Source: a bacterium BMS3Abin14 (GTDB lineage: Bacteria; BMS3Abin14). From it: a stretch of DNA of 64,000 nucleotides. Where the stretch lies: contig BDTG01000046.1 in the NCBI GenBank assembly GCA_002897695.1, positions 35,411-99,410 of the forward strand, in the 5' to 3' direction. Positions 26,890 to 51,802 of this stretch are shown piece after piece; positions within the stretch are counted from its first letter, which is position 1, and every line of letters starts with the position of its first letter. The translations under genes were made by a program, and so were the position numbers. Under the pieces are notes generated by a model that searched no databases, was not told the origin of the DNA, and saw nothing but the letters and a program-made list of their open reading frames with translations.

Positions 26890-28371
26890 TTACATGAGAG
26901 ACAGGACCGACAGCCTCGCAGCCTCCAGAACGCCGCCCGGCAGAATTCCCAGAATGAGAGTGCCGGTCAATGCCAGAGCTATTCCGGCCCATAGGATCAG
27001 TGAGCGGGGGGAGACGGCAAACTCGCCCTCGGGCTCTCTCATATACATGAGGACAATAATGCGGAGGTAGTAGAACGCCGCTACAACACTGTTAAGAAGT
27101 CCGATCACGACAAGGGTGTAATACCCCCCCTGTATACCGGCATAAAACACATACAGCTTGGCAGCGAATCCTGCCGTGGGGGGAATCCCCGCCAGGGAAA
27201 GCATGAAGATCATCATGGCCAGCGCAGCGCCCGGCGCCCGTCTGGACAGCCCCTGAAAGTCGTCCAGGTTCTCTCCCGTCATATTCTCACGTTTGAGATA
27301 TATAAGGATCGCAAAAGCGCCGATATTCATGAAAGTGTACGACAGAAGGTAAAACATGACGGAAGATATGGCACGATCAGGCCGGCCGTTCACCGAAGCA
27401 ACCACTCCAATAAGGATGTATCCAACATGGGCTATTGAGGAATAGGCCAGCATCCGTTTTACGTTTTTTTGTCTCAGCGCAGTGAGGTTTCCCAGGGTCA
27501 TTGTCAATACACTGAGGACAACGACGAGGACCTCCCAGTCCCCCTTCATCTGGGGGAGCGCTTCCATTAAAATTCGGATAAGCGCCGCCAACCCGGCTGC
27601 CTTGGGACCGGCCGACATAAAGCCTGTCACCGGGGTGGGAGCGCCCTGATATACATCGGGGGTCCACATGTGGAATGGAACAACGGATATTTTGAAGGAA
27701 AAACCAACCAGCACCATGAACATCCCGGCCAGGAGAGGAACGTCTTTGAGTAACGCCGGATGGGAGTTGATGGCGTCGGCGATTTTATCAAAATGCGTGC
27801 TGCCGGTGACACCGTAAATATAGGACATTCCAAAAAGCGTGATGCAGGTGGCAACAGAGCCCAGAATGAAATATTTCAGCCCGGCCTCGTTTGATTTAAG
27901 ATCAGTCCTGAAAAATCCGGCCAGAATATAGAGGGAAATAGAGAGTATCTCCAGGCCCAGGAAGATGGTGATAAGTTCCCTTCCCACGGCCATTACCATC
28001 ATTCCGACCGTAGCCAGAAGGAGAAGGGCATAATATTCCGCGTGGTCCCCGGTCCCGCCTTCCTTCATGAAGCGGAGCGAAAGCGTCATGGTAAGAATCA
28101 GCCCGAACAGAAATATCACCTTGAAGAAGGTTGCGTAGGGATCAAGAACAATCGAATTTCCGAAAGTCGAGACGTTAAGACCGGCCTCGGACAGGGTCAC
28201 CGCAAGCGCCACAACAGCCCCGGCCATACCGATAGTAAAGGATGCGCTATGCTTCTTCGTCCGGGTGACCAGTTCCCAAAGAACGACCAGGAATGCGGTC
28301 GCCGTGAGTATCAACTCCGGAGCAATGACCCTGAAATCCGGGATAAGAATAGTCAAACTCTGCATGGGCAC
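26890..28371 (-). CDS. nuoN: NADH-quinone oxidoreductase subunit N
   Basis: EAGLKYF, FKISVVPFHMWTPDVYQGAP, KRMLAYSSIAH. Confidence 0.95.
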   Translation of the reverse strand: MPMQSLTILIPDFRVIAPELILTATAFLVVLWELVTRTKKHSASFTIGMAGAVVALAVTLSEAGLNVSTFGNSIVLDPYATFFKVIFLFGLILTMTLSLRFMKEGGTGDHAEYYALLLLATVGMMVMAVGRELITIFLGLEILSISLYILAGFFRTDLKSNEAGLKYFILGSVATCITLFGMSYIYGVTGSTHFDKIADAINSHPALLKDVPLLAGMFMVLVGFSFKISVVPFHMWTPDVYQGAPTPVTGFMSAGPKAAGLAALIRILMEALPQMKGDWEVLVVVLSVLTMTLGNLTALRQKNVKRMLAYSSIAHVGYILIGVVASVNGRPDRAISSVMFYLLSYTFMNIGAFAILIYLKRENMTGENLDDFQGLSRRAPGAALAMMIFMLSLAGIPPTAGFAAKLYVFYAGIQGGYYTLVVIGLLNSVVAAFYYLRIIVLMYMREPEGEFAVSPRSLILWAGIALALTGTLILGILPGGVLEAARLSVLSLM

Positions 28372-28377
28372 TTTTCC

Positions 28378-30021
28378 TTAATTCAACCCCTCAACCGGGG
28401 GGAGAGCGTTAACGCCGTTGAACGTAATGGAATGCCGATCCACATTCACAGCCAACTTGACCGCGGAAGAATCCACATCCAGGCCGGCGGATTGCGCCTT
28501 TTTCAGCTCGATCCGTGCGGATTTGGCTGATTCCACCCGCAAGACCACCTGTTTCGCCGCCGGTTCAATAATTTTCAGAAACGGTTTGGGATAGATCCCC
28601 ACCCAGAACATCAGAACGACCAGGGGCGCCAGAGTAGCTATCTCACGCATGTTGATATCCAAAAGTTTGCGGTTCTCCTCGTGGGTGATCTCTCCGAACA
28701 TTATCTTCTTGTACATGTGAAGCATATATACCGCCCCGAGGATAATGCCGGTTGACGCCAGGACGCCAAAGACAAACAATCCGGATTTAAATGCCCCGAG
28801 AAGAATCAGAAATTCACCGACAAAACCGTTGAGCCCTGGAAGCCCAATGGAGGAGAAAGTGGCAATTCCAAGAATTGCCGCATAAACAGGCATCACCGAG
28901 GCCAGACCACCGAAATCATCCAGAAGCCGGGTATGCCTTCGTTCATAGATAATCCCGACGAGAAGGAACAGAGCTCCGGTGGAGAGCCCATGGTTTATCA
29001 TCTGGAGGATACCGCCCTGCAGACCCTGGAAAGAGAGGGTAAAGATTCCCAGCATTACAAAACCCAGATGGCTCACGGATGAATAGGCGACAAGTTTCTT
29101 GGCATCAGGCTGCACCCAGGCCACCAGAGCACCGTAAATGATTCCGATGACTGAAAGGGCCAGAACCACCGGAATCGCCCTGATGGCGGCGTCGGGCAGG
29201 ATTGGGAGGGAAAACCGGACAAAACCGTACGTTCCCATTTTCAGCAGAACACCCGCAAGGATCACTGAACCTGCGGTGGGCGCCTCAACATGTGCGTCGG
29301 GAAGCCACGTGTGGAAGGGGAAAAGAGGAACCTTGATGGCGAACCCGAGGAATAGCCCCCAGAAGGCCCACATCTGGACATTCCTCGGGATATTGGACGT
29401 GAGCAGCCTGATGACATCGAAGGTATAGACCCCGGTGGCCGAATGGTATGAAAAATATATGAGCAGAAAACCTATAAGCATGAAGAGACTGCCGATCAGG
29501 GTGTAAAGGAAGAACTTCACCGCTGCGTAAATTCGGCGCTGCCCACCCCATACGCCGATAATGAGCGCCATGGGGATCAGCTCAATTTCCCAGAAAACAT
29601 AGAAAAGGACGAGATCGAGAGCAAAGAACACACCCAGCATGGCGGACTGAAGAACCAGGAAAGCAACCATATATTCTTTGACACGGTCCTTGATGGCCGA
29701 GAAAGAGGATAAAATGGCGATCACACCGAGGAGCGTGGTCAGCAGGGCCAGAAGAAGGCTGATCCCGTCCACTCCCATGATGTAGCTGATACCGAGCCCC
29801 GGAATCCACCTGGCCCTCTCCACAAACTGGAACCCGGATTGCCCGACGTTGTATTGGGCAAGGAGCACCATGGAAACCAGGAAATCCGCGACGGCGATTA
29901 CCAGCGCTGTATTCCGGATGAGGTTAACCTTTTTACCCGGCACCAGAAGGGCAAGCAGCAATGCGCCAACGGCCGGCAGGTAAACTATGACTGATAATAT
30001 TGGGAAGGTCATATGTTCCAT
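28378..30021 (-). CDS. nuoM: NADH-quinone oxidoreductase subunit M
   Basis: FYVFWE, KVPLFPFHTWLPDAHVEAP, KKLVAYSSVSH; ~45-aa C-terminal extension. Confidence 0.95.
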   Translation of the reverse strand: MEHMTFPILSVIVYLPAVGALLLALLVPGKKVNLIRNTALVIAVADFLVSMVLLAQYNVGQSGFQFVERARWIPGLGISYIMGVDGISLLLALLTTLLGVIAILSSFSAIKDRVKEYMVAFLVLQSAMLGVFFALDLVLFYVFWEIELIPMALIIGVWGGQRRIYAAVKFFLYTLIGSLFMLIGFLLIYFSYHSATGVYTFDVIRLLTSNIPRNVQMWAFWGLFLGFAIKVPLFPFHTWLPDAHVEAPTAGSVILAGVLLKMGTYGFVRFSLPILPDAAIRAIPVVLALSVIGIIYGALVAWVQPDAKKLVAYSSVSHLGFVMLGIFTLSFQGLQGGILQMINHGLSTGALFLLVGIIYERRHTRLLDDFGGLASVMPVYAAILGIATFSSIGLPGLNGFVGEFLILLGAFKSGLFVFGVLASTGIILGAVYMLHMYKKIMFGEITHEENRKLLDINMREIATLAPLVVLMFWVGIYPKPFLKIIEPAAKQVVLRVESAKSARIELKKAQSAGLDVDSSAVKLAVNVDRHSITFNGVNALPPVEGLN

Positions 30022-30120
30022 GTAGCCCTTTCTCTACCCGACGATGCCAGCCTGATTTGTTCCTGGAAAATCAGCGCAGCAACCATCCTGCCGGGCCGAC
30101 ACCGGCGAAAGAAACCGTAA

Positions 30121-32052
30121 TTACACCAAAAAAGTCCAGAAAAGCACCACGACCAAACCAACGGCCATGGCCAGAGCATAGTTTTGAACAAAACCGGTCT
30201 GAAGCCTGGCAAGAAATCCGCCGGCCCGATCCGCGCCATTGGCAATTCCATGAAGCGTTCCGTCGATGACTCCACCATCGAACCCTGTCCACAGAAGGTT
30301 CCCAAGGCGATTAAGCGGCCTGGTGATGATCATCTCGTAGAACTCGTCCACCCACCACTTATGGTAAAAAAGGTCGTAAAGAAAACTGTAGTCTTTCCTG
30401 ATCTCCTCGGCAATCTGGGGTTTGCGCAGAATAATGGCCAGAGCAAGCCAGATGCCCCCGACAGCCACCACGACCGAGACCCCCATCAGACCGAGTTCCG
30501 AAGCGACGGAATGGACGGCCTCGGCCATCTCCCCTGCATGCTCGGTAACGGCGCCGAATACGGGGCCAAGCCAACTGTGCAGGAGATGCCATTTCTCCAC
30601 AATCGGGATCCCGGCAAACCCGCCGACAGTCGAAAGAAATGCAAGGATAACCAGCGGTACAGTCATGACCGATGGGGACTCATGTGCGTGTTTAGCCACT
30701 TCCGGGTCCAGCCTCGACTCACCGTGAAACACCAGGTAGACCAGCCGGAACATGTAAAAAGCCGTCATAAAAGCGGTAACCACACCGGCAAACCACAGGA
30801 GGAAACCACCTCCGTACTTTGAATTGAAGGCGGCGTTGAGGATCTCGTCCTTCGACATGAAGCCCGCCAATGGAGGGATGCCGGAAATGGCCAGGGACGC
30901 CACGACAAATGTCTTATAGGTTGTGGGCATGATCTTTCTCAACCCGCCCATCTTTCGTATGTCCAGCTCCCCGGAAAGGCCATGCATGACGCTGCCCGCA
31001 CACATGAACAACAGAGCCTTGAAAAATGCGTGGGTCATGAGATGAAAGATCGCAGTCGTGTATGCTCCAACACCGACCGCCAGGAACATGTATCCCAACT
31101 GGCTTATCGTGGAGTAGGCCAGGACGCGTTTGAAATCGTTCTGAACAAGTGCAATGGTGGCAGCGAAAAAGGCGGTCAATGCCCCAATTGATGCAATCAC
31201 CATCATGGTTGGGGGGGCCATTTCAAAAAGAACATGACTGCGGCAGACCATATAGACCCCGGCGGTCACCATCGTGGCGGCATGGATGAGGGCGGAAACC
31301 GGTGTCGGGCCCTCCATGGCGTCGGGCAGCCAGATATGGAGAGGCAGCTGGGCGGATTTTCCGATCGCGCCGAGAAAGAGCAGCATGGTGATCAGGATGA
31401 CCATCGGGTCTCCCTGGCTGAACACCTGGTGGGCTCGGCCGAAAACCTCGGCGTATGACAGGGAACCGAAGTGGATGGCGATAAGAAGCATTCCAATCAT
31501 GAAGCCGAAATCGCCCACGCGGTTGACGATGAAAGCCTTCTTCCCCGCCGCCGAGGCGCTCTCCTTTTTGAACCAGAAGCCAATGAGCAGATAGGAACAG
31601 AGCCCCACCCCTTCCCAACCGACGAACATGACCAGGAAGCTGTTGCCGAGCACAAGCATGAGCATGGCGAAAACAAAAAGATTCAGATACAGAAAATAAC
31701 GGGCCACACCCTCATCGTGTTCCATATAGCCGATACTGTAGACATGGATGAGGAATCCGACCCCCGTGATCACCAGGATCATCACGGATGAAAGTGGATC
31801 AAGCAGGAACCCGATGGGGACTGAAAAGTCGCCGGAGCCGATCCACTGGAACAGGTTGATATTGAAAACCCTGGAGCCGGCCTCCATTCCAGTCAATCCT
31901 GAAATGGCCACCACCGAGGCCAGGAACGCCGAGGCCACCGAGCCGCATGCCAGTATCCCCACCGCTGACCTTGACAGGCGCCGGCGGAAGACGAGGTTGG
32001 CGATCACCGCCAGGAGAGGGAAGAGTGGTACCAGGACTACCGCTTCTGTCAT
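30121..32052 (-). CDS. nuoL: NADH-quinone oxidoreductase subunit L
   Basis: GWEGVGLCSYLLIGFW, KSAQLPLHIWLPDAMEGPTPVSALIHAATMV, C-terminal lateral helix region. Confidence 0.95.
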   Translation of the reverse strand: MTEAVVLVPLFPLLAVIANLVFRRRLSRSAVGILACGSVASAFLASVVAISGLTGMEAGSRVFNINLFQWIGSGDFSVPIGFLLDPLSSVMILVITGVGFLIHVYSIGYMEHDEGVARYFLYLNLFVFAMLMLVLGNSFLVMFVGWEGVGLCSYLLIGFWFKKESASAAGKKAFIVNRVGDFGFMIGMLLIAIHFGSLSYAEVFGRAHQVFSQGDPMVILITMLLFLGAIGKSAQLPLHIWLPDAMEGPTPVSALIHAATMVTAGVYMVCRSHVLFEMAPPTMMVIASIGALTAFFAATIALVQNDFKRVLAYSTISQLGYMFLAVGVGAYTTAIFHLMTHAFFKALLFMCAGSVMHGLSGELDIRKMGGLRKIMPTTYKTFVVASLAISGIPPLAGFMSKDEILNAAFNSKYGGGFLLWFAGVVTAFMTAFYMFRLVYLVFHGESRLDPEVAKHAHESPSVMTVPLVILAFLSTVGGFAGIPIVEKWHLLHSWLGPVFGAVTEHAGEMAEAVHSVASELGLMGVSVVVAVGGIWLALAIILRKPQIAEEIRKDYSFLYDLFYHKWWVDEFYEMIITRPLNRLGNLLWTGFDGGVIDGTLHGIANGADRAGGFLARLQTGFVQNYALAMAVGLVVVLFWTFLV

Positions 32053-32063
32053 CGTCTCTTCTC

Positions 32064-32366
32064 CTAGCCCTTCATCAGGTTGATTTCATCAACGTTGACG
32101 GTCTCACGATTGCGGAACAGGGCCACGAGAATCGCGAGACCCACGGCCGCCTCCGCGGCTGCCACCGTCATCACAAAAAACACAAATACCTGTCCCGCCA
32201 TATTGTGTATATAGTGGGAAAAGGCGATCAGGTTGATATTCACGGCATTAAGCATCAGCTCAATGGACAGAAGAATTATGATGATGTTCCTCCGGAGGAG
32301 TACCCCCAGAAGACCGATAACAAACAGAATGGCCCCGAGGACCAGATAGTGCGTAAGGGTAATCAT
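32064..32366 (-). CDS. nuoK: NADH-quinone oxidoreductase subunit K
   Basis: [22 protein letters not shown]. Confidence 0.95.
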
Positions 32367-32875
32367 TCCGCGCTCTCCCTTCGAGCCAGGACCACAGCCC
32401 CGAAAATCGCCACCAACAGAACCAGGGATGCCAGTTCAAACGGAAACAGAAACGTTGTGTAAAGGCTCGCGCCCACAGCTTCGGTATTTCCCCCGAAGAC
32501 GTTGCCGACAAGTTTGGCGACCGGACGGGAAAATGAACCCTGAACCGCAAGAATGACAAGTTCAAGCGCAAGCGCGATGCCGGCGACCATGGCAAAGAAT
32601 CGCTGGCGGTGTATTATCCTCAGCTCCCTGGTGCCGGAAAGATTCAGCAGGGTAACGACAAAAAGGTAAAGGACCATAATAGCCCCGGTGTAGACCAGAA
32701 TCTGAACGGCAGCCAGAAATTCGGCGTCCAGCAGGACAAAAAGACCCGCGATATGGAAGAAACACGGGATGAGGAATATCACCGAATGGACGGGGTTGGA
32801 ACGGGAAACCGACAGCACGGCCGTCACTACCGTAACCACCGCAAAATAGTAAAACAACAATGAATACAGATTCAT
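32363..32875 (-). CDS. nuoJ: NADH-quinone oxidoreductase subunit J
   Basis: [33 protein letters not shown]. Confidence 0.93.
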
Positions 32876-32885
32876 CAGCCGCTCC

Positions 32886-33332
32886 CTACAGGTCCTTGTA
32901 CTGGGGGTCGTCCCCCTTGGCCAGCATAGTCTCTTTGGTCACCTTCAGATTGCCGGGGTCGGTGACAGTCAACTCATAATCGTTCCCCATCCAGACGGCA
33001 TCAACGGGACAGACCTCCTGGCAGAATCCGCAATAGATGCAGAGCCCCAGGTCGATCTGGTAGAAATCGACGTTTTTCTCGTGCTCCTCGCCCTCGGAGG
33101 TTACGATGGTAATGGCATCGGATGGGCAGATCGCCGCACACAGGGCACAGCCCACGCACCTCTCCTTGCCGTCCGGATGCCGTTTGAGAATCTGAGCGCC
33201 TCTATATCGGGGGGGCGGTTCCCAACGCACCTCCGGATATCTGAGGGTAACCGGCTTGGAGAAAAAATATCTGATGGTAAGAGTCAGCCCCTGAATCAGG
33301 TCAGTTTGGAAAATGTTGGTCAGCAGGCCCAC
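32886..33332 (-). CDS. nuoI: NADH-quinone oxidoreductase subunit I
   Basis: TLRYPE, CVGCALCAAICP and CIYCGFCQEVCP (2x[4Fe-4S]). Confidence 0.95.
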   Translation of the reverse strand: MGLLTNIFQTDLIQGLTLTIRYFFSKPVTLRYPEVRWEPPPRYRGAQILKRHPDGKERCVGCALCAAICPSDAITIVTSEGEEHEKNVDFYQIDLGLCIYCGFCQEVCPVDAVWMGNDYELTVTDPGNLKVTKETMLAKGDDPQYKDL

Positions 33333-33343
33333 TGCGATCTCTC

Positions 33344-34363
33344 CTATAAAATTCCGGATATTCTGATGATACCGGACAAAAAGACATTAAAAATTGCGAG
33401 AGGAAGAAGAACTTTCCAGCCAAGCCCCATGAGCTGGTCATACCGGAGTCTGGGAAACGTCCACCGCACCCAGACCATGAAGAAGAGAAAAAATCCAACC
33501 TTCAACAAAAACCAGACGACAGGCATGACATAGGCCACAAACGCGGCGGGCAGCGCCGAATCGATGATGGGCCCGACAATAGGCAGCGGGAGCCACCCCC
33601 CGAAGAACAGAACGACCAGAACGCAGGATATGGAGATCATGGAAACGTACTCGGCCATGAAGAAGAGGGCGAACTTCATGGATGAGTATTCCACGTGATA
33701 ACCGGCCACAAGCTCCTGCTCGGCCTCGGGAAGGTCAAAGGGAAGACGGTTGGTCTCGGCGAAGGCCGCGACCAGAAAAAGGAGAAATCCCAGGAACTGC
33801 GGGATGACAAACCATAGCCCACGCTGCGCCTCCACGATCTGCACCATTGACAGGGAACGCGAGTACATGAGCACCCCTATGATGGAGAGTCCGAGGGTCA
33901 GTTCATAGCTGATCATCTGCGCAGCGGACCGCAACCCGCCCATGAGAGCGTACTTGTTGTTGGATGACCACCCGGCCAGAACCAGCCCGTAAACGCCCAG
34001 AGATGAGATGGAAAGTATGTACACGATGCCGATATTCAGATCGGATATCTGGAGATGGGGCCCGATGGGGATGACGGCGAACGTCAGCAGAGCCGGAATA
34101 AATGCCATGAGCGGCGCCAGGACAAAGAGAACCTTGTCGGCATTGGAAGGCATTATATCTTCCTTGAAAAAGAGCTTGAGCGCATCTGCGATGGGCTGAA
34201 GAAGCCCAAAAGGACCCACATAAAGTGGTCCGTGCCGATTCTGGATATGACCCGACACCTTCCTTTCAACCCACACCATAACCGGCACACCCGTCAGGGC
34301 CACGATGAGGATACCCACTATTTTCAGCAGGATGACGAACAAGAAAAGCCAGATATTCTCCAT
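33344..34363 (-). CDS. nuoH: NADH-quinone oxidoreductase subunit H
   Basis: ERKV..IQNRHGP, GLLQPIADALKLFFKE, AETNRLPFDLPEAEQELVAG. Confidence 0.95.
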   Translation of the reverse strand: MENIWLFLFVILLKIVGILIVALTGVPVMVWVERKVSGHIQNRHGPLYVGPFGLLQPIADALKLFFKEDIMPSNADKVLFVLAPLMAFIPALLTFAVIPIGPHLQISDLNIGIVYILSISSLGVYGLVLAGWSSNNKYALMGGLRSAAQMISYELTLGLSIIGVLMYSRSLSMVQIVEAQRGLWFVIPQFLGFLLFLVAAFAETNRLPFDLPEAEQELVAGYHVEYSSMKFALFFMAEYVSMISISCVLVVLFFGGWLPLPIVGPIIDSALPAAFVAYVMPVVWFLLKVGFFLFFMVWVRWTFPRLRYDQLMGLGWKVLLPLAIFNVFLSGIIRISGIL

Positions 34364-34386
34364 AACCTTCCCTTAGTGTCAGATCC

Positions 34387-35385
34387 TTAATATTCCATGG
34401 CGCCGGATCGCTTGATTTCTCCAACCTTCTCGAGGAGGAAAAAGGCGTCCGTGTTCTCAGGATTGAGCTTAATAGCGTTGTTGAGCACCTCTTCGGCCTT
34501 GTCCAGCAGTCCAAGATGAACGTAGCTGTTGCCCAGGTGATACAGGGCGCTGGAATCCATCGGATCGAGTTCTTTAACCCGGTTGAAGCTGGCCGCGGCG
34601 TCCTCATGTGACCCCTTCCTGGCCTGAGCAACTCCCAGATGGTAGTAGGCGGCTGTAAATTGAGGTGACAGAGCCAGCGTTTGTTCGTATGCCTTGACGG
34701 CATCCTGCATGTTGCCCAGGTGGAAGTAGACCTGCCCCAGCCAGTAGTAGGCCATGACGTATCCGGGGGAGATCTCCACCACCTTCCTGAGGGCATCCTC
34801 AGCATCCTTCAGCATGCCTTTCTGGAAATAAACGGTCCCCAATACGTACATGGCCCTTGCGAAGGTGGGTGATATTTCGAGGGATCGCCGCAACTCCTCT
34901 ACCGCGTCGTCGAGCTTGGCGTTCTTCTGGTGGAGCAGGGCAAGACGGTAATGAATCTGGGCGGTGTCGGGTATCATCTTTTCCACCCGGTTGAAATGAA
35001 ACTCCGAATCAGGAAGAAGACCCATGGAGTAGCATGTCATTCCAAGGCGATAATGAACCGCGGGAGATGTGGGATTTGCGGCCTCAGCCTTCTTGAAACA
35101 CTCCAGGGCCGCCGACAGCATCCCCTTGTCGTAGTAGGCAACCCCCATGTAGTAATGGGTCATCTGAAAATCAGGCACCAGTTCGAGGGTTTCTTCCCAG
35201 CGCTTAAGCGCGTCGTCGAAGTGCCCCTGGTGGTAGAGGGAACTTCCATCGCGGTAGAGCTTTTCGGCCTTCTCCTTGTTGGAAAGAGCCTCATGGTCAT
35301 CGACCGTCGCCTCAAGCTTGTTGCCGCACTCCTTGCAGTAGCGGCTGTCCTCCGGGATCAACAGATTGCATGCCGGGCAGATCAT
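34387..35385 (-). CDS. Zinc-ribbon plus multi-TPR protein inserted in the nuo operon
   Basis: N-terminal CPAC...CKEC followed by roughly eight TPR-like repeats (e.g. HYYMGVAYYDKG, YYHLGVAQARKG). Confidence 0.85.
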   Translation of the reverse strand: MICPACNLLIPEDSRYCKECGNKLEATVDDHEALSNKEKAEKLYRDGSSLYHQGHFDDALKRWEETLELVPDFQMTHYYMGVAYYDKGMLSAALECFKKAEAANPTSPAVHYRLGMTCYSMGLLPDSEFHFNRVEKMIPDTAQIHYRLALLHQKNAKLDDAVEELRRSLEISPTFARAMYVLGTVYFQKGMLKDAEDALRKVVEISPGYVMAYYWLGQVYFHLGNMQDAVKAYEQTLALSPQFTAAYYHLGVAQARKGSHEDAAASFNRVKELDPMDSSALYHLGNSYVHLGLLDKAEEVLNNAIKLNPENTDAFFLLEKVGEIKRSGAMEY

Positions 35386-35390
35386 TTTTG

Positions 35391-38171: not shown

Positions 38172-38177
38172 GTCCCG

Positions 38178-39992: not shown

Positions 39993-40021
39993 CTGCCGCT
40001 ATATCCTCCTGAAGAGTGGAA

Positions 40022-40576: not shown

Positions 40577-41040
40577 CGCCACCTCCACATGTAATTAACC
40601 ATGTCGATGTACCGTTCGTTCATTCCCCTCAGGGAGTCCACCAGTTCATCTATAATGAGCTTCATGATCTTCACGGCGTCCGCAGGGTGTTCCTCCACAA
40701 ACCGGTCGAATGACGCCCGGTCCAGCAGGTACAGCACGGTCTCTCCCTTGGCGCCGGCATCGGCCGAGTGCTCGCCTCCCGAAAGGAAGGTCATAATGCC
40801 GACGAAACGCCCCGCGGGAACGATACCCAGATTCTGGGCTTCGCCCTCTTTGGCCCTTTTCGTGATTCTCACCGCCCCCTGGCCTACCAGGTAAAGATCG
40901 CCACCCGGGGTTCCCTCGTTGAAGATCGGCCCCTTATCCTGATAGGCCCTCCTTTGAAGGACCCTTGCCAGATAATTCAAGGCATCGGCCGAAATAGTCT
41001 GGAATGACTTCATCTGTTTGAGCTGGCTAATTTCAATCAT
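40573..41040 (-). CDS. Stand-alone cyclic-nucleotide-binding-fold (Crp N-terminal-like) protein
   Basis: IFNEGTPGGDLYLVGQGAVRI...GRFVGIMTFL...HSADA; no HTH; 155 aa. Confidence 0.8.
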   Translation of the reverse strand: MIEISQLKQMKSFQTISADALNYLARVLQRRAYQDKGPIFNEGTPGGDLYLVGQGAVRITKRAKEGEAQNLGIVPAGRFVGIMTFLSGGEHSADAGAKGETVLYLLDRASFDRFVEEHPADAVKIMKLIIDELVDSLRGMNERYIDMVNYMWRWR

Positions 41041-41053
41041 CTTTCATTCCTCC

Positions 41054-43729
41054 TCAAAACTTCTCAACCCGGACCCGGACCACAGCGGTCTCCAGCCCGG
41101 CGCCGTTTTCCCCCATAAGACGGCTGACCGGTACATCGGAGAAGTGGCGCGGCAAAAAGAGCACCCCGGGCAAAAGATCGTTTGAAAACTTTACGCCGAC
41201 CGCAACCTCACCACCGGGGGAAACCACCTTGACCCGGCTTCCGTCCTCAATATCCAGCCCGGCGCCGGTGGCCTCGTTCATTGTCAGAACCGCCCTGCCG
41301 ACAAGCTGATTGAGGGATTCCGAATACCCGGTAAAACTCCCGGAGTGCATCAGCAGATTACCGACCAGCAGTGTCAGGGGATAATCCGGATCCCTTGCAA
41401 AACCTCCCCATCCTTCCACTGCTGCGAAGGAGCGCTTCACATCCGGGACCGAATCCGGCAGAAGGTGTCTGGTCCCAAGGTAACCCTCGCTGTAGACCTC
41501 CTGGGCATCCTGCCTGGTGAAGGGCCACTGAATGCCGTGGTCGGCCAGAATGCGATAGTTGATCCCGGAGTAGTACGGCACGACGCTGGAGATCTCATCG
41601 AGCACTTCCGCGGAGTTGACGTACTTGAGCCCTTCAACGCCCATGGATACACCGACTTCCGAGAATATCCTCCAGTCGGGCATGGTTTTCCCGGCCCCGT
41701 CCTGGGCTTTTTTGCTTAGCTGTACCCTTCTGTCAATGCTCGTGAGGGTGCCGTCCTTTTCGGGAAGGCCGCAGGCAGGCAGAACGACATGGGCACTGGA
41801 TGCCGTCTCCGTCAGGAACAGCTCCTGAACCACGAGGAATTTTACCCTGGCCAGGGCCTCCTCGATCATCTGCCTATCCGGAAATGTTACAACCGGGTTT
41901 ACTCCAACGAGGTACAGCGCCGAAAGCTTACCCTTCCCGGCGGCGGCGAACATCTCGTTGGCATTCATCCCCGGTTTTTTTGGAAGAACGGCATCCCAGG
42001 TTTTCTCAAGGGTTTTTACGCCCCCGGAAGATCCGACCTGAACCCACCCGGGAAGATGGCCGGGTGATACGCCCATGTCTACAACACCCTGAAAGTTGGT
42101 GTTGGAAAGGACGGGATAAATACCGCAGCCTTCCTTTCCAAGGCGGCCGGTAAGCATCAGGAGATCGATAAGAGCGTTTATCAGATCCCCGCCGTTGGGA
42201 CCCAGGGCGGCTTCCTCACCAAATATAACGGACGACTTCCCGGCGGAGATGAATTCCCTCGCAGTCTGGGTGATGTCGTTAACGGAAACGCCCGCATCCG
42301 ATGCCATCTTCTCAAGGTCAAGGCCGCCGACCGATCCCCTGAGGGCCTTCATGCCCTTATAATCCGACAGGGCCTCCTCATCGACCAGTCCCTCATCCAG
42401 CATGACCCGCATCATCCCCTTGATGAACGTCACCTCATTGCCCACGTCAAGGAGCACCGTCCGGCCTGCAAGCCGCGACAGGGCTGTACGCCTGGGTATG
42501 AGTTCGGTTACCGAAGCGCCTTTTCTAATGGCCGCCTTGATCTTGAGCCCGGCAATGGGGCTCTCCACGGTTATGTCACATCCCACGAGGAGCAGGGATT
42601 CAACATAATTAAGCTCGTCAAGAGAATTCGGCGCGGCCAGAACTCCAAGTCGTTTCTCAAGGATGGGCAGAACGAGGCGGTTCCAGTTTCCGGTCGGCGT
42701 GTCCACATTGTTGCTTTCAAAACCGACCCTGAAAATCTTCTGGAAAAGGTAGAGCTCTTCATTGGTCAGGCGGTCCGATACGACCCCGCCGATGGAGTTG
42801 CCGCCGCTCGTTTTCTTCACTTCCCCGAAACCCCTGGAAATTTCTTCCAGGGCCTCCTCCCAGGAGGCCTCGACCAGTTCATCACCCTTCCGGATCAGGG
42901 GTGATCTGAGCCGTTCGGGGTTATTGATGGCATCGTACCCGAAATAGCCCCTGGAGCACAGACTGCCGTAATTGACCCCCCTGTTTTCCGCGTTGGTCAC
43001 TTTGAGCACCTTGTTATTTCGATGATTGTAGACCAGCGTGCAGCCCACGCTGCAGTACGGACAGATGGCCTCCGTCTTGTCCATCTCCCACGTACGGAAC
43101 CTCTCCTTCATGGCCCTGGAAGTGATAGCCCCCACCGGACATACCCAGATACAGTGTCCACAGTATTCGCAGTCGAGGGACTTTTCCATGAACGGTCCCA
43201 CGATCGTCTGGGCGCCGCGGTATGACATTCCGAGGGCCGTCACCCCCTGGATCTCATCGCATATCCTGACGCACCTTTTGCACTGTATGCACCTGTTAAG
43301 ATTCCGGTCGATGAGCGGGCTGATGATATGGTCCCTCAGGATCCTCTTCTTCTCTCCGAATCTGGTCTCGCCGCTTCCGAACTTGAAGGAAATATCCTGA
43401 AGGGCGCAATCCCCGGAAGCATCACATACGGTACACTCCAGGGGATGGTTGATAAGGAAAAATTCCAGCATCATCCTCCTGGCTTTCTGGACCCGCGGCG
43501 TGTTGGTCCTGATCTCCATGCCATCCAGGACCGCCAGGGTGCAGGCCGTCTGCAGTTTGCCCATACCTTCCACTTCCACCAGGCACATACGACAGGCGCC
43601 GAGCTCGCTCAGCATGGGGTGATGACAGAATGTGGGAATATGGATACCAAGCTTCCTGGCCGCGGCGAGGACGTGAAGATGCCCGTCCACCTTGATCTGC
43701 TTTCCGTCTATTACCAGGCGGACCATCAT
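41054..43729 (-). CDS. nuoG: NADH-quinone oxidoreductase subunit G (long, FdhF-like)
   Basis: PTFCHH...GACRMC, HPLECTVC, CIQCKRC / CEYCGHC, CPYCSVGC...LC; degenerate molybdopterin-oxidoreductase C-terminal half. Confidence 0.85.
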   Translation of the reverse strand: MMVRLVIDGKQIKVDGHLHVLAAARKLGIHIPTFCHHPMLSELGACRMCLVEVEGMGKLQTACTLAVLDGMEIRTNTPRVQKARRMMLEFFLINHPLECTVCDASGDCALQDISFKFGSGETRFGEKKRILRDHIISPLIDRNLNRCIQCKRCVRICDEIQGVTALGMSYRGAQTIVGPFMEKSLDCEYCGHCIWVCPVGAITSRAMKERFRTWEMDKTEAICPYCSVGCTLVYNHRNNKVLKVTNAENRGVNYGSLCSRGYFGYDAINNPERLRSPLIRKGDELVEASWEEALEEISRGFGEVKKTSGGNSIGGVVSDRLTNEELYLFQKIFRVGFESNNVDTPTGNWNRLVLPILEKRLGVLAAPNSLDELNYVESLLLVGCDITVESPIAGLKIKAAIRKGASVTELIPRRTALSRLAGRTVLLDVGNEVTFIKGMMRVMLDEGLVDEEALSDYKGMKALRGSVGGLDLEKMASDAGVSVNDITQTAREFISAGKSSVIFGEEAALGPNGGDLINALIDLLMLTGRLGKEGCGIYPVLSNTNFQGVVDMGVSPGHLPGWVQVGSSGGVKTLEKTWDAVLPKKPGMNANEMFAAAGKGKLSALYLVGVNPVVTFPDRQMIEEALARVKFLVVQELFLTETASSAHVVLPACGLPEKDGTLTSIDRRVQLSKKAQDGAGKTMPDWRIFSEVGVSMGVEGLKYVNSAEVLDEISSVVPYYSGINYRILADHGIQWPFTRQDAQEVYSEGYLGTRHLLPDSVPDVKRSFAAVEGWGGFARDPDYPLTLLVGNLLMHSGSFTGYSESLNQLVGRAVLTMNEATGAGLDIEDGSRVKVVSPGGEVAVGVKFSNDLLPGVLFLPRHFSDVPVSRLMGENGAGLETAVVRVRVEKF

Positions 43730-45003
43730 GCTGATTCCTCCAACGTTCCGCCGTCCGGCTCTTCGCCCTTCAAATAACCCAGGTACTCATCCCTGAACTT
43801 TTCCATGGTGCTCGTCACACAGCTGACCGATGCCTCTCCCAGCCCACAGAAGGACGTGGTCCGGATGCTCTCACAAATATCCGACAGCAGATCCAGATCG
43901 GCCATGGCGCCGCGGCCCTCCAGGATCCTGTCGAATATCCTTCTGACCCAGAAAAGACCCTCCCTGCATGGAGTGCACTTACCGCAGGATTCGTGCTCGA
44001 AAAACTTGATAAGCACGTGGGTGACCTTGACCATATCGGCGGTATCGTCCAGGACCATGACGGCCCCTGATCCGAGCATGCTGCCGGCCGCAGCCAAGGC
44101 ATTGAAATCCAGCTTCACATCAAGCTGGGATTCGTCAAGACAGGCGGAAGATGCGCCTCCCGGGAAGGCCGCCTTGAAGCTCCTGTTGTCCCGCATCCCA
44201 CCGGCGTGCTCAAAGACAAGCTCACGCAGGGTAACCCCCATGGGCAGTTCATAGACCCCGGGATTGACCACGTGGCCGCTGACGGAGAAAAGCTTTGTTC
44301 CGGGGCATTCCGGCGTACCGATCCCTGCGTACCAATCACCGCCCCTCAGGAGTATCTGCGGAATGGAAGCGAGTGTTTCAACGTTGTTGACGACCGTAGG
44401 CAGGTCACTGTATCCGACGTTGACCGGGAAGGGAGGGCGAATTCTGGATTGCCCCCTTTTTCCCTCCAGGGACTCGATGAGGGCGGTCTCCTCACCGCAC
44501 ACATAAGCTCCCGCTCCCCGATGTACGGTTATCGTGAAATTGAAACCCGAGTTCAGGATGTTCTCACCGAGAAACGATCTTTCCTCAGCCTCTTTAATGG
44601 CCCGTTCCAGAACCCTGGCCCCAAAGGGGTATTCACCGCGAATGTAGATGAAGCCATACTCCGCCCCCACGGCATATGCGGCCAATGCCATCCCCTCCAG
44701 GATGGCATGGGGGTCGTTCTCGATCAGCACCCTGTCCTTGAAAGTTCCGGGCTCACCCTCGTCCGCATTGCATATGATGAACTTCGGGCTGCGCCGGTCC
44801 CGTGACGCAAAGTCCCACTTCATGCCCGCGGGAAACCCTGCCCCGCCCCGACCCCTCAGCCGGGAAAGTTTAACCTCCTCAAGGACATCCTCGGGGCCCA
44901 TTTCGTTCAAGGCCCTGGGGAGAGCAACGTATCCCTCGTTGACCAGATAGGAATCGATATGCGCCGGATTGGGCCGGTCAATATTTCGGGTCAGGATCTT
45001 CAA
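43726..45003 (-). CDS. nuoF: NADH-quinone oxidoreductase subunit F (canonical short form)
   Basis: GRGGAGFP, NADEGEPGTFKDR, YVCGEETAL, ESCGKCTPC...CGLG. Probable TTG start at 45003; the ORF extends to 45084. Confidence 0.92.
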   Translation of the reverse strand: MKILTRNIDRPNPAHIDSYLVNEGYVALPRALNEMGPEDVLEEVKLSRLRGRGGAGFPAGMKWDFASRDRRSPKFIICNADEGEPGTFKDRVLIENDPHAILEGMALAAYAVGAEYGFIYIRGEYPFGARVLERAIKEAEERSFLGENILNSGFNFTITVHRGAGAYVCGEETALIESLEGKRGQSRIRPPFPVNVGYSDLPTVVNNVETLASIPQILLRGGDWYAGIGTPECPGTKLFSVSGHVVNPGVYELPMGVTLRELVFEHAGGMRDNRSFKAAFPGGASSACLDESQLDVKLDFNALAAAGSMLGSGAVMVLDDTADMVKVTHVLIKFFEHESCGKCTPCREGLFWVRRIFDRILEGRGAMADLDLLSDICESIRTTSFCGLGEASVSCVTSTMEKFRDEYLGYLKGEEPDGGTLEESA

Positions 45004-45007
45004 AACG

Positions 45008-45499
45008 CTACGCCTTCTGCCTGTATGACTCAAGGATGCTACCAACACCGTCGGCTGAAACCTGCCGGTAGAGATCCGCATCAACCATCAGGGCCGGAGC
45101 ATGGTCGCACGCCCCTATACACTCCACTTCCACCAGTGAAAATATGCCGTCGGCAGTGGTCTGCCCCACTTCTATGCCCAGTTCCCTTTCAACCGCCCCG
45201 AGAATCTCATCCGACCCGTTGACCGAACAGCTCATGCTCCGACAGATCTGGACAAGATGCCTGCCCATGGGTTTCGTAAAGAACATGGTGTAGTAGGTGG
45301 CCACCTCAAAGGCCCTTACGTGGGGAATCTCGAGCATGTTCGCGATAAAGACGAGATCCTCCTCGTCCAGAGATTGTTTCTTTCCCTGAACGAAGTGCAG
45401 AAGGGGCATGATGGCGGACGCTTTTATGGGATATCGGCCGACAATGCCTTCCATGGCCCTGACGTCATCGGCTTTGAGGTATCCGGGGGGCGCCGTCAT
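45008..45499 (-). CDS. nuoE: NADH-quinone oxidoreductase subunit E
   Basis: ATYYTMF, CRSMSC...CIGACDHAP. Confidence 0.92.
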   Translation of the reverse strand: MTAPPGYLKADDVRAMEGIVGRYPIKASAIMPLLHFVQGKKQSLDEEDLVFIANMLEIPHVRAFEVATYYTMFFTKPMGRHLVQICRSMSCSVNGSDEILGAVERELGIEVGQTTADGIFSLVEVECIGACDHAPALMVDADLYRQVSADGVGSILESYRQKA

Positions 45500-46668
45500 C
45501 GGTCAATTTCCCCCAAGACAATATCAAGGCTCCCGATGATGGCCACCACATCGGCAAGCATATGCCCCTTGGCCATATCCATGAGGGACTGGAGATTGAC
45601 GAATGAGGGAGGACGGATTCTGAGGCGGTACGGCTTTGGCGTCCCGTCGCTGACGATATAAAAACCGATCTCGCCCTTGGGCGATTCAATGCTGGAATAT
45701 ACTTCCCCCTCGGGCGGCGCCAATCCGTCCACCACCAGTTTGAAGTGGTGGATCATGGCCTCCATCGAATCTTTCAGCCGGTCCTTGTCGGGGAAGACGT
45801 ACTTGGCGGTGCGCTCGATGAAAGGCCCTTCGGGAAGGCCCTTGACCAGCTGTCTGACCATTCGGGAACTCTGCCGCATTTCGACGAGACGGACAAGATA
45901 CCTCGCATAGATATCGCCGGCGGTCCTGACGGGAATGTCAAATTCAATCTCGTCGTAGGCCTCGTAAGGTTCGTCCCTTCGGATATCCCAATCAACACCT
46001 GAAGCACGCATAGCGGGTCCGGAAAGGCCCAGGCTGATGGCATCGGCCCGGCTGAGAACCCCGATATTCCTTGTCCTGTGCAACCATATGCGATTCTTTG
46101 TCAGAAGCCTCTCGTACTCATTGATGCGGACATCAAACTTGTCGAGGAAAGCGATGATCTTCGCATCAACACCCGCCGGGAGGTCACGGACTACACCGCC
46201 GGGACGGAAGTAGGTCATCATCATGCGTGTACCGGCGGTCTCCTCGATAATATCCAGGATGAACTCCCTCTCCCGGAAGCCGTAAAGGAGGACCGTCAGG
46301 GCGCCGATATCGGCCGCGTGGGTGCCCAGCCACACCAGGTGGCTCATGATCCGGGACAGCTCCGCAAATATGGTCCTGATATACTGCGCGCGGCGTGGAA
46401 CGTCCATCTCCAGGAGTTTTTCAACCGCCAGGATGTATGACAGATTGTTGGTGCCGGAGGAAAGATAGTCCAGTCGGTCGGTGAGAGGAATCACCTGAAG
46501 GTACTTCTTGTCTTCGGAAAGTTTTTCTATACCCCTGTGCAGATAACCGATATCGGGAACCGCGTTGACCACCGTCTCGCCGTCCAGCTCCAGGATAATC
46601 CGGAGGACGCCGTGGGTGGAGGGATGCTGAGGCCCCATGTTGATGGTCATTACTTCCTGTCTGGCCAT
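45496..46668 (-). CDS. nuoD: NADH-quinone oxidoreductase subunit D
   Basis: GPQHPSTHGVLR, GYLHRGIEK, ESPKGE, DIVLGEIDR; no NiFe CxxC motifs. Confidence 0.95.
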   Translation of the reverse strand: MARQEVMTINMGPQHPSTHGVLRIILELDGETVVNAVPDIGYLHRGIEKLSEDKKYLQVIPLTDRLDYLSSGTNNLSYILAVEKLLEMDVPRRAQYIRTIFAELSRIMSHLVWLGTHAADIGALTVLLYGFREREFILDIIEETAGTRMMMTYFRPGGVVRDLPAGVDAKIIAFLDKFDVRINEYERLLTKNRIWLHRTRNIGVLSRADAISLGLSGPAMRASGVDWDIRRDEPYEAYDEIEFDIPVRTAGDIYARYLVRLVEMRQSSRMVRQLVKGLPEGPFIERTAKYVFPDKDRLKDSMEAMIHHFKLVVDGLAPPEGEVYSSIESPKGEIGFYIVSDGTPKPYRLRIRPPSFVNLQSLMDMAKGHMLADVVAIIGSLDIVLGEIDR

Positions 46669-46679
46669 CTATTCCTCCC

Positions 46680-47189
46680 TCACCACTCTTCCCGTCCTCC
46701 GACGGGAAATTCCTTACGCAGGGGATATCCTTCGAAATCGCTGGGCATGAGTATCCTTCTCAGGTCCGGATGATCCGCAAATGGAATGCCGAAAAGATCA
46801 AAAATCTCCCTCTCCAGCCAGTCGGCTCCCCGCCACAATCCGCAGACGCTGTCTACTTCCTGCCCTTCCGAAATCCTCGTCTTGAGCCGGAAGCGCATTT
46901 TGCCGGCGATGGAAAATAGCTGATAGATGACATCGAATGGGGCCTCTTTCCTGACAGGCCAGTGGACGGCCGTAACGTCCGAGAGGAAATCGAAGGCCAG
47001 TTCCGGGTCATCCTTGAGAAAGCGAAGCGCGTCCCTGCATTTTTCGGGGGCGATGACCACTCCGACCTCACCTCGGAAGAATTCAATTTCCCGAACAGCC
47101 CCTGAAAAATTTTTGCGAAGTGCCGTAACCGCGGGATGCTTCTCCGGATCCTCCCCCGCGAAGTTCTGGCGATTCCAGTTAACCGTCAA
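46680..47189 (-). CDS. nuoC: NADH-quinone oxidoreductase subunit C
   Basis: [32 protein letters not shown]. Confidence 0.93.
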
Positions 47190-47740
47190 ATCGTCTCCTT
47201 TTTATGCGGCCCCGTAAATCCCGGCGCAACCTTGCGGGGTACCGCAGAAAAGTTTGACTGGCTGTCAATCTTCATCTGAAGGGTCATGAGCCCGTGGATG
47301 AGGGCCTCGGGACGCGGAGGGCATCCGGGAACATAGACATCCACCGGAATAACATGGTTCACCCCGGGGACCACACTGTAGGTCTGAAAGATCCCGCCGC
47401 ACGTCGCGCAGCTTCCCATGGCCAGAACCCATTTGGGGTCTGCCATCTGATCGTAAAGCTTCTTGAGCACCGGCGCCATCTTGTTTGTCACGGTCCCGGC
47501 CACGATCATAAGGTCGGCCTGCCTGGGGGAGGACCTGAAGACCTCCATGCCGAAACGGGCTATATCATATCGCGCGGCCGCGGTGGCCATCATCTCTATG
47601 GCACAACAGGCCAGCCCGAAGCCGAGGGGCCACAGCGATGATCGCTGTGCCCAGTTAATGGCGGAACTTAACGTTGTGAGAACGATATTGCCCTCATCCG
47701 GGTGTGGACCTTTATAAATGTGGGTGGGGTTTTTGCTCAT
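47186..47740 (-). CDS. nuoB: NADH-quinone oxidoreductase subunit B
   Basis: [37 protein letters not shown] 47740 overlaps the nuoA stop. Confidence 0.95.
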
Positions 47741-48111
47741 GACCAGTCCAGAGCTCCCTTCCTCCATACGTAGACATAGCCGAAGAGGAGGACAGCGATA
47801 AAGAGGATCATCTCGACGAAACCGAAGATAACCGGGTTGAAACGGTCAAAGAGGATCGCCCACGGATACAGGAACACTATTTCAACGTCAAACAGGATAA
47901 ACAGCATGCCTATGAGGTAGAATCGAACGTCAAAGCGCCCCCTGGCATCCTTGAAGGGGACCATGCCGCATTCATAGGTGGAGTTTTTCTCCGCGGTGGG
48001 ATTCTTTTTCCCCATGAAAACGGACATGACCACCATTCCACCGCCCACGCCGCCTACCGCGAGGAGGAAAATAAATACAGGCAGATAATTGAGGACGAGC
48101 TCCCCTTTCAC
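47737..48111 (-). CDS. nuoA: NADH-quinone oxidoreductase subunit A
   Basis: [34 protein letters not shown]. Confidence 0.95.
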
Positions 48112-48244
48112 CGAAAATACCTCCCCCCCCGGATTAAAGGGCGTGAAAATACCACATCAGCCGGGAATTTGAATAAGATCGTGTCTAAGGTTCCGGGGAG
48201 AATGTATACAAAAAACAATCCCCGATGTCCACAACAAATAATGA

Positions 48245-48420: not shown

Positions 48421-48438
48421 ATGTGAATTTTTTTGCAA
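48421..48438. promoter_or_regulatory. Candidate Rex operator ATGTGAA-TTTT-TTTGCAA
   Basis: 11/14 match to TTGTGAA-N4-TTCACAA, in the divergent nuoA/hemL intergenic region; rex is encoded downstream. Confidence 0.5.
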
Positions 48439-51717: not shown

Positions 51718-51802
51718 GGAACCGTCTATGTGAAAATGCGAACTTTTTCAAGCTACCCGGGCGAACCACTGCCCGGGTACGACAAGCAGGAGGTTGGATA
51801 TA

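Follow-up and report, generated by a model that had tools for sequence, protein, structure and literature searches.

Architecture of the operon

The 64,000-nucleotide stretch of DNA from the uncultured marine-sediment bacterium BMS3Abin14 analyzed here (contig BDTG01000046.1, positions 35,411 to 99,410; hereafter the window) carries an operon for respiratory complex I in which genes for two different electron-input modules (N-modules, or heads) accompany a single set of membrane-arm genes. Nineteen co-oriented genes on the minus strand run from 48111 to 26890 of the window. Their order, 5' to 3', is nuoA-B-C-D, nuoE-F-G, a gene for a protein with a cyclic nucleotide monophosphate (cNMP) fold, a second trio of head genes that we call E'-F'-G', a gene for a zinc-ribbon/tetratricopeptide repeat (TPR) protein, and nuoH-I-J-K-L-M-N (Table 1). 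An original prediction, made from the letters alone, had described this order and its tight junctions, and both are confirmed by the listing of open reading frames (ORFs), by Pfam and NCBIfam matches and by reading of the junctions. Adjacent genes share ATGA/GTGA overlaps or are separated by gaps of 5-29 nucleotides, the one exception being the 99 nucleotides between nuoL and nuoM.

Four other assemblies of the same species agree with the window at 99.7-99.99% DNA identity over the parts of the operon that each holds, and the layout recurs in 11 further loci from relatives, three of which are closed chromosomes. Thus, the layout is no assembly artefact. A promoter of its own for E'F'G', which the original prediction had named as a point against itself, gives no signal above that of shuffled sequence in consensus scans, and the same is true of a terminator between the heads, although this is a weak test. 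Rfam models applied at gathering thresholds identify no RNA elements in the whole window.

The core of complex I is complete. All 14 subunits can be assigned, 13 of them by family match and NuoN by position and identity. Family scans (Pfam or NCBIfam) covered 18 of the 19 genes, nuoN being named otherwise, and the curated cut-off of at least one model is reached by NuoB, C, D, E, F, G, H, I, K, L and M; NuoA and NuoJ match their own NCBIfam models below cut-off. NuoD lacks the cysteine motifs of NiFe enzymes and has no CxxC pairs, its N-terminus carries ...GPQHPSTHG..., and its C-terminus is of the NuoD type (...LDIVLGEIDR). The sequence therefore argues, in agreement with the original prediction, that the complex is a true complex I in which NuoD makes a quinone site and not a hydrogenase site.

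The first head is a canonical one. NuoF is a bare flavin mononucleotide (FMN)/NADH core with no added N- or C-terminal domains, such that its Protein Data Bank (PDB) matches span only the HydB/NuoF core, and it is 63-86% identical to the nuoF products of other dual-head genomes, the value of 63% coming from the deep-branching locus L011. NuoG retains all five N-terminal Fe-S motifs, and its Mo-like domain is fully degenerate. Because identity between the two heads is only 29% for E/E', 46% for F/F' and 37% for G/G', the heads must be old paralogues, and a recent tandem duplication of nuoEFG can be rejected. A recent foreign insertion of either head is likewise rejected, given that there is no compositional signal and that the paralogue trees described below indicate ancient coexistence. 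GC content at third codon positions is uniform across all genes, at 0.68-0.76 in both heads and 0.62-0.73 in the arm.

The second head

By its sequence, E'F'G' is a Bfu trimer of the HydABC/Stn/Nfn type, as originally predicted, whose A subunit appears to have no substrate site and to act only as a wire for electrons. F' matches the solved BfuB subunits of bifurcating enzymes over its full length (770-819 bits to 9bov_B, 7t2r_B, 8oh5_B, 9n5u_B and 7q4v_B; 648-673 bits to 8a6t_B and 7p5h_B). It is composed of a thioredoxin (Trx)-like N-terminal domain, an FMN/NADH core with the N3 cluster (residues 166-532), a His/Cys hinge and a C-terminal ferredoxin-like domain for two [4Fe-4S] clusters, in which two CxxCxxCxxxC motifs (Cys 556-566 and 586-596) lie within residues 550-600. 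Both of these C-terminal motifs are intact, as are the Cys/His residues of the hinge, the N3 cluster and the FMN/NADH motifs. The best PDB matches of E' are the HydC/NfnC/StnC subunits of bifurcating enzymes (162-134 bits), with 122 bits for 7p5h_C, 110 for the formate dehydrogenase gamma subunit and 103 for NuoE, and the protein carries a C-x4-C ... C-x3-C motif.

G' resembles the formate dehydrogenase subunit FdsA from end to end (610 bits to R. capsulatus-type FdsA, 9wxb_B and 6tg9_A), and it scores 644.7 bits against TIGR01591 (FdhA), under the cut-off of 666.25. However, the catalytic Cys/Sec is replaced by Ala (ARFAH versus ARVCH) and the catalytic Arg by Ser (PMSEY versus PLRGQ), whereas bona fide FdhA proteins in the same alignment keep ARLCH and PLRGQ. 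The catalytic Cys and Arg are gone in every G' orthologue, including those in which G' is the only G subunit; the Cys position is Gly or Ser in some of them, and the Arg position is Pro in L011. The His of the formate dehydrogenase site is kept in the window and lost in L011 and in L025, a relative that carries only the Bfu head. With the catalytic Cys and Arg lost, G' is a NuoG-type wire rather than an active formate dehydrogenase, and a role for the complex as a formate:quinone enzyme is rejected. The formate dehydrogenase-like character of G' and its dead active site were absent from the original prediction. The five N-terminal Fe-S motifs, including that of the His-ligated cluster, are common to G and G'.

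Two features of the second head vary among relatives. The first is a hydrophilic C-terminal extension of G' of approximately 50 residues, rich in Lys, Glu and Gln, whose long form is confined to the main dual-head clade and is absent in L011, in the dual-head locus L030 and in every G' from a Bfu-only operon. This extension may serve as a tether or docking element. The second is the C-terminal part of F'. In most dual-head relatives, F' is approximately 1026 residues long, and a GltD/NfnB-like unit (Fer4_20 plus Pyr_redox_2, binding flavin adenine dinucleotide and NAD(P)H) replaces the ferredoxin-type domain. An example is L009:11041-14121, and the same fusion is found in L013, L014, L015, L016, L017 and L021, whereas F' has retained its HydB-type form, of 595-608 residues, in the window, in L011 and L030 and in the Bfu-only genomes. 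Judging from these domains, a second head with a GltD-fused F' would be linked to NADH and NADPH and not to ferredoxin.

Two accessory proteins

The first accessory gene codes for a 155-residue protein that consists of a CRP/FNR-type effector domain and a 35-residue C-terminal helix, and nothing more. PF00027, an AlphaFold2 model (pLDDT 86.5) and Foldseek (a TM score of 0.8 to M. tuberculosis CRP) agree on the beta-barrel and C-helix of a cyclic nucleotide-binding (CNB) domain. There is no helix-turn-helix (HTH) DNA-binding domain: the protein ends after the C-helix, at residue 155, and the Foldseek alignments to CRP and GlxR are confined to their effector domains. The predicted fold is thus upheld, but the canonical phosphate-binding residues are absent. 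When aligned to protein kinase A and CRP, the phosphate-binding Glu (G-E-L) and Arg (R-[ST]-A) are replaced by Ile82 and His91, which are invariant in 14 of 14 family members. Because these two residues of the phosphate-binding cassette are replaced, canonical sensing of cAMP or cGMP by this protein is doubtful.

Other parts of the protein are strongly conserved. The surface loop RAKEGEAQ is nearly invariant, K64 being present in 90% of sequences or more, and little or no variation is seen in the 14 residues at the C-terminus, ERYIDMVNYMWRWR. The protein belongs to a narrow family. A word-indexed search recovered 39 clusters at 55% identity or more, and when 1.84 billion cluster representatives were searched exhaustively, close matches over the full length numbered only two (64% and 68% identity), the remaining matches being at most 39% identical or summed hits from proteins with multiple CNB domains.

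The second accessory protein begins with a CxxC-x11-CxxC ribbon, which is conserved in all orthologues except that of L011. No specific curated NCBIfam family matches this TPR protein above cut-off.

Three states of the locus in relatives

A synteny search had been suggested as a check on the layout, and it shows that the linkage of E'F'G' to nuo genes is conserved. At least 12 loci have the dual-head arrangement (the window, L009, L011, L013-L017, L019, L020, L021 and L030), and E'F'G' is placed between nuoG and nuoH in 12 of 12. Two other states occur, in which the locus is a 14-gene nuo operon with one head. Three different Bfu-only operons were found, namely L023/L024, with the TPR gene, L025, without it, and L029, where a TPR gene follows nuoN. 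Four contigs (L026, L027, L028 and JGI 3300042731) are canonical-only, with EFG and no E'F'G'. The single-head operons occupy the orthologous locus, whose shared neighbors are hemL, atpI/B/E and a multihaem cytochrome upstream and EamA downstream. The relatives' sequences come from marine sediment, cold-seep and vent-chimney metagenomes.

Membrane-arm proteins are approximately 60-90% identical across all states of the locus, and 70-89% identical for the arms of single-head operons. Among the dual-head loci other than L011, identity to the window is 75-86% for nuoF, 71-81% for F', 65-78% for G' and 63-65% for nuoG. All ORFs are intact and carry complete cofactor motifs in at least 12 loci, which span approximately 52-90% protein identity. 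The nearest outgroup of G' (59-65% identity) and that of the canonical G (52-57%) are both found at this same chromosomal locus in relatives.

The two accessory genes, which the original prediction had treated together, are indeed both present in the operon, but they behave differently. The cNMP-fold gene tracks the dual state, being found in every one of the 12 dual-head loci and missing from all seven single-head contigs. The TPR gene instead tracks the Bfu head: it is present in dual-head operons and in some Bfu-only operons (in L023 but not in L025), and never in canonical-only ones. In L029, a 340-residue TPR protein (L029:11025-12047), recognized by its TPR content and place alone, is encoded after nuoN and not between G' and nuoH. 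The TPR gene may therefore stay linked to the Bfu head even when it has moved.

History of the two heads

Joint trees of G with G' and of F with F' were built by neighbor joining (NJ) on gap-free columns and rooted reciprocally; since G/G' and F/F' are paralogues, each half of a tree roots the other. The dual-head locus L011 is basal in both halves of both trees (93-100% NJ bootstrap), and single-head forms nest within the dual-head diversity. This position of L011 indicates that the dual state is ancestral in the group, and so the description of cNMP-E'F'G'-TPR as an inserted block, given in the original prediction, does not hold. Read most simply, the trees place both heads side by side already in the common ancestor, with single-head operons derived by loss or by exchange of the head block.

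The G' of the dual-head locus L030 falls inside the Bfu-only G' clade (100% bootstrap). Some operons are mosaics. The NuoH-K arm of the dual-head loci L016/L017 groups with Bfu-only genomes (100% bootstrap), and their NuoH is 88-89% identical to that of L023 versus 74-76% to that of L015. Their heads, by contrast, group with those of L015 and L009 (84% versus 61% for G'). Seen along the operon, L016/L017 most resemble Bfu-only genomes in the nuoA-D and nuoH-K flanks but L015 and L009 in the head block. Because head and membrane-arm phylogenies disagree, heads appear to have moved between arms by recombination, and the pattern of identities implies that the N-module block was swapped as a unit by homologous exchange, the breakpoints lying close to nuoD/nuoE and TPR/nuoH.

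Proposed alternative heads on one membrane arm

We favor an explanation, to which we assign about an even chance of being correct, wherein one scaffold of quinone and proton-pumping modules (Q/P-module; NuoABCD plus NuoHIJKLMN) is served by two alternative N-modules that compete for one docking site. Behind it are observations of gene content, of domains and cofactor motifs, of conservation and of the three states of the locus. Each head is the sole N-module in some relative, so that both must be capable of docking. The identical cluster motifs of G and G' suggest that the two dock in one geometry and thus compete. That close relatives keep one head or the other suggests, from these comparisons of genes, that the heads are interchangeable parts.

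Several observations could instead be accommodated if only one head docks, most simply NuoEFG, and if the other trimer and the cNMP-fold and TPR proteins make up a co-transcribed soluble ferredoxin:NAD+ oxidoreductase, or a transhydrogenase in the GltD-fusion relatives. Trimers of the NuoEFG type and Bfu trimers exist in known systems as stable soluble units, every solved relative of F' is a soluble enzyme, and the GltD-fused variants look like soluble Nfn/Stn-type enzymes. In addition, two heads per transcript and a single docking site imply that there is a surplus of free head. However, with the Mo site of G' dead, a free E'F'G' trimer would lack a third substrate and could not bifurcate, whereas docked E'F'G' would have quinone. 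The constant placement of E'F'G' within the dual-head operons also speaks against a separate enzyme, as does the existence of Bfu-only operons with no other N-module and of canonical-only operons with no Bfu trimer, such that each head is used somewhere. We therefore regard the soluble enzyme as unlikely, if still worth keeping in view. Because each head can serve alone, alternative heads are favored over a co-encoded soluble enzyme, and of the two readings put forward in the original prediction, that of two interchangeable heads on one arm is better supported by the EFG-only and E'F'G'-only operons at the orthologous locus.

Both heads might also reside on one particle. One G would dock on the Q-module and the second trimer would be attached via a dimer of the cNMP-fold protein, the TPR protein or the G' extension, to give an enlarged N-module with two flavin sites. 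Co-transcription in one operon often goes with matched amounts of the products and with their joint assembly, HydABC/Stn-type trimers oligomerize through their A subunits (structures 7P5H and 8OH5), and the modelled cNMP-fold protein has what appears to be a CRP-like dimerization helix (AlphaFold2, Foldseek). The restriction of the G' extension to the main dual-head clade is consistent with such a particle, but the dual-head loci L011 and L030 do without the long form. Moreover, each head occurs alone in relatives, so neither needs the other, and the five cluster motifs shared by G and G', including the His-ligated cluster that faces NuoI, suggest competition instead. A two-headed particle thus seems to us improbable.

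That one head is a non-functional relic being lost, or that the arrangement is an assembly chimera, is very hard to credit: single-head derivatives exist and so loss does happen, but ORFs and cofactor motifs are intact in the dual-head loci, the layout is present in closed chromosomes and independent assemblies, and the dual state is basal in the paralogue trees.

If two alternative heads do share one arm, the canonical NuoEFG head would provide input of electrons from NADH only, and the Bfu head would put the quinone pool in electronic contact with NAD(H) and low-potential ferredoxin by way of the two [4Fe-4S] clusters of the C-terminal F' domain, with G' acting as an Fe-S wire only. In the forward direction, electrons from NADH and reduced ferredoxin would pass together to quinone (confurcation), giving added driving force for pumping. 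In the reverse direction, quinol oxidation driven by the proton motive force (pmf) would yield reduced ferredoxin and NADH. The data do not discriminate between the two directions.

All of the genes are apparently co-transcribed, and since there is no sign of separate transcription, the choice between heads would have to be made post-transcriptionally, at the protein level. The cNMP-fold protein is the best candidate for a selector because its gene is restricted to operons with both heads and extends into the start of E'. This HTH-less, CRP-like protein might be a ligand-dependent selector or blocker, and the Zn-ribbon/TPR protein might be an accessory or assembly factor of the Bfu head. We infer these roles, as well as the docking of each head, their mutual exclusivity and the bifurcation or confurcation chemistry, from the arrangement of the genes and their motifs. 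The more specific proposal, in which heads are exchanged post-translationally on one scaffold between NADH-only and NADH/ferredoxin modes (NADH/NADPH in relatives), as set by a ligand-sensing, HTH-less CRP-like protein acting directly on the enzyme, is speculative and we consider it rather unlikely to hold in full.

A number of points weigh against the model of alternative heads and its ferredoxin chemistry. The group is known from genes alone, and even the single-head complex in which a Bfu trimer replaces NuoEFG is a prediction (PMC9304861). Most single-head cases are seen as contigs only, and a second head could be encoded elsewhere in those genomes. Only a few independent events in evolution, perhaps two to four, underlie the link between the cNMP-fold gene and the dual state. 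The trees are NJ trees on gap-free columns and not model-based maximum likelihood trees. Two heads from one transcript for one site looks wasteful unless the free pool has a role. The prevalence of GltD-fused F' among the dual-head relatives means that a ferredoxin head is not general for the clade. Finally, the Trx-like N-terminal domain of F' aligns but has only three Cys residues (16, 47 and 51), which makes its [2Fe-2S] cluster uncertain; the same three-Cys pattern is seen in the alignments of StnB (8oh5_B) and 9bov_B.

Relationship to known systems

The closest known system is Nuo-Bfu, a predicted 14-subunit complex I in which BfuABC replaces NuoEFG (Schut et al. 2022, PMC9304861). It was assigned to BfuB clades 38/39, from Geobacter, Deferribacteres, Planctomycetes and Nitrospirae, and in G. 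sulfurreducens it is a genomic prediction supported only by co-expression (PMC9304861). Quinone was proposed as the third substrate, in a confurcation with extra driving force (PMC9304861). The statement in the original prediction that Bfu modules had already been predicted beside respiratory complexes is accordingly correct. Like Nuo-Bfu, the window has a BfuABC-type trimer between nuoD and nuoH, with the HydB-type extra domains in F', and the Bfu-only relatives L023, L025 and L029 match the predicted Nuo-Bfu layout exactly. Unlike Nuo-Bfu, the window has both NuoEFG and a Bfu trimer in one operon, and it adds the cNMP-fold and Zn-ribbon/TPR genes, which are unmentioned in the text of PMC9304861.

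A second comparison is with the NUO-2 operon of Nitrospina gracilis, similar to a 'formate:quinone oxidoreductase'-like operon of Kuenenia, in which NuoF carries one additional [2Fe-2S] and two [4Fe-4S] clusters and NuoG is formate dehydrogenase-like (Lucker et al. 2013, PMC3578206). For NUO-2, reverse electron transport from the quinol pool to ferredoxin was proposed (PMC3578206). However, N. gracilis has two separate complex I gene sets, whereas in the window both heads share one membrane gene set in one operon. Furthermore, NuoF2 of N. gracilis is reported to lack the FMN site (PMC3578206), whereas F' of the window keeps its FMN/NADH motifs.

Among soluble enzymes, HydABC (7P5H, 7Q4V, 8A6T), NiFe-HydABCSL (7T2R), StnABC (8OH5) and NfnABC (9N5U) have full-length homologues of E' and F' with the same cofactor motifs. 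Unlike these Bfu enzymes, the trimer of the window lacks an H-cluster, NiFe subunits and a GltD domain, its Mo site is dead, and it is encoded inside a nuo operon. The formate dehydrogenase FdsGBA (R. capsulatus, 6TGA; C. necator, 6VW7) has an analogous trio of subunits, and its FdsA aligns with the whole of G', but F' has the C-terminal domain with two [4Fe-4S] clusters that FdsB does not (matches stop at residue 529).

Cyanobacterial NDH-1L and NDH-1MS combine one conserved core with alternative modules for different tasks. In these NDH-1 variants it is membrane and CO2-uptake subunits that alternate, and the loci that encode them are separate and regulated separately, whereas in the window the electron-input module is the part with alternatives, and both versions are in one operon.

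Searches of the full-text literature found no description of two N-modules in one nuo operon, of cNMP-fold and TPR genes in a nuo operon context, or any mention of accession CP070719. The original prediction had not recognized the dual-head layout with accessory genes as a described system, and no report of it emerged from these searches. Single-head Nuo-Bfu has already been predicted, and it appears that only the dual-head form with its accessory genes is undescribed.

These loci bear on a question of some general interest. The docking of a Bfu trimer on complex I has so far been argued from gene order alone, and its energetic effect is likewise at issue. The relatives provide a natural experiment in which the same membrane arm is paired with an NADH head, a Bfu head or both, so that the modularity of the N-module becomes testable, and they offer two candidate specificity factors, namely the TPR protein, for the Bfu head, and the cNMP-fold protein, for the coexistence of heads. 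Should the Bfu head couple quinol and the pmf to ferredoxin (NADPH in relatives with the GltD fusion), that coupling would account for the way in which bacteria of sediments and vents supply carbon fixation that depends on ferredoxin, or rid themselves of reduced ferredoxin when they have no Rnf. Switching of heads at the protein level, if it occurs, would be a new level of complex I regulation and would give the operon a built-in switch between ordinary respiration and ferredoxin-linked electron transport, forward or reverse.

Gene coordinates and neighborhood

Start codons were chosen with the junctions in mind. The start of nuoF is the TTG at 45003 and not the longest-ORF start at 45084, and E' probably starts at the GTGA overlap at 40576. 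The spacer between nuoL and nuoM is the sole sizeable gap in the 21-kb operon, and relatives have spacers of approximately 55-75 nucleotides at this place.

Table 1. Features of the operon and its surroundings, with coordinates in the window
Feature	Coordinates	Strand	Description
nuoA	47737..48111	-	124 aa; GTG start; first gene; NCBIfam NuoA models, E 1e-30
nuoB	47186..47740	-	184 aa from the ATGA overlap with nuoA; longest ORF to 47767; TIGR01957 239 bits, cut-off 143
nuoC	46680..47189	-	169 aa; TIGR01961 136 bits, cut-off 122
nuoD	45496..46668	-	390 aa; quinone-module subunit; TIGR01962 587 bits, cut-off 459
nuoE	45008..45499	-	163 aa; canonical head [2Fe-2S] subunit; TIGR01958 148 bits, cut-off 142; PF01257
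nuoF	43726..45003	-	425 aa; TTG start 4 nt past the nuoE stop; TIGR01959 573 bits, cut-off 559
nuoG	41054..43729	-	891 aa; canonical head; TIGR01973 481 bits, cut-off 470
cNMP-fold gene	40573..41040	-	155 aa; PF00027 60 bits
E'	40022..40588	-	184-188 aa; BfuC/HydC-type [2Fe-2S] subunit; PF01257; likely start 40576
F'	38178..39992	-	604 aa; BfuB/HydB-type; Pfam and PDB sequence matches
G'	35391..38171	-	926 aa; BfuA/NuoG-type; FdsA match and motifs
G' C-terminal extension	35391-35560		Lys/Glu/Gln-rich
Zn-ribbon/TPR gene	34387..35385	-	332 aa; CxxC-x11-CxxC; TPR Pfam families
nuoH	33344..34363	-	339 aa; NF004741 377 bits, cut-off 305
nuoI	32886..33332	-	148 aa; TIGR01971 149 bits, cut-off 113
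nuoJ	32363..32875	-	170 aa; NuoJ NCBIfam models, E 2e-41
nuoK	32064..32366	-	100 aa; NF004321 142 bits, cut-off 91
nuoL	30121..32052	-	643 aa; NF005141 783 bits, cut-off 556
nuoL-nuoM spacer	30022-30120		99 nt
nuoM	28378..30021	-	547 aa; after the 99-nt gap; TIGR01972 627 bits
nuoN	26890..28371	-	493 aa; last gene; post-nuoM position; sequence like that of a 14-transmembrane protein; 68-71% identity to the nuoN-position gene of L023/L025/L027
AI-2E family transporter gene	25793-26836		next gene past nuoN, convergent
Eight-G run	48124-48141		directly upstream of the nuoA Shine-Dalgarno and GTG start
Candidate Rex site	48421-48438		ATGTGAATTTTTTTGCAA; 3 mismatches
Multihaem cytochrome c gene	51794-52993		11 haems, 11 CxxCH
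Membrane protein gene	53024-53890		288 aa
Multihaem cytochrome c gene	54132-55517		10 haems
Rex gene	55507-56151		NADH/NAD+-sensing repressor
GSU2086-family protein gene	56796-57755		402 bits, cut-off 250

The 383-bp region upstream of nuoA is shared with the divergent hemL gene. A gene for Rex lies approximately 7 kb from the operon. A Rex operator upstream of nuoA is not supported: the region has one site with three mismatches, but there are three such sites in the window, and 28% of shuffled sequences give as many. The run of G nucleotides before nuoA shows no sign of slippage, as it has eight G in four assemblies of the species.

Beside the atp genes (51794-55517), two multihaem cytochrome c genes flank the gene for a membrane protein, and the same cytochrome neighbors are present in L025-L028. 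The composition of this cluster suggests a quinol-linked or extracellular electron-transfer module similar to those of Geobacter. Together with Rex and the GSU2086-family protein, the multihaem cytochromes hint at an anaerobe of Desulfuromonadota/Geobacter-like affinity.

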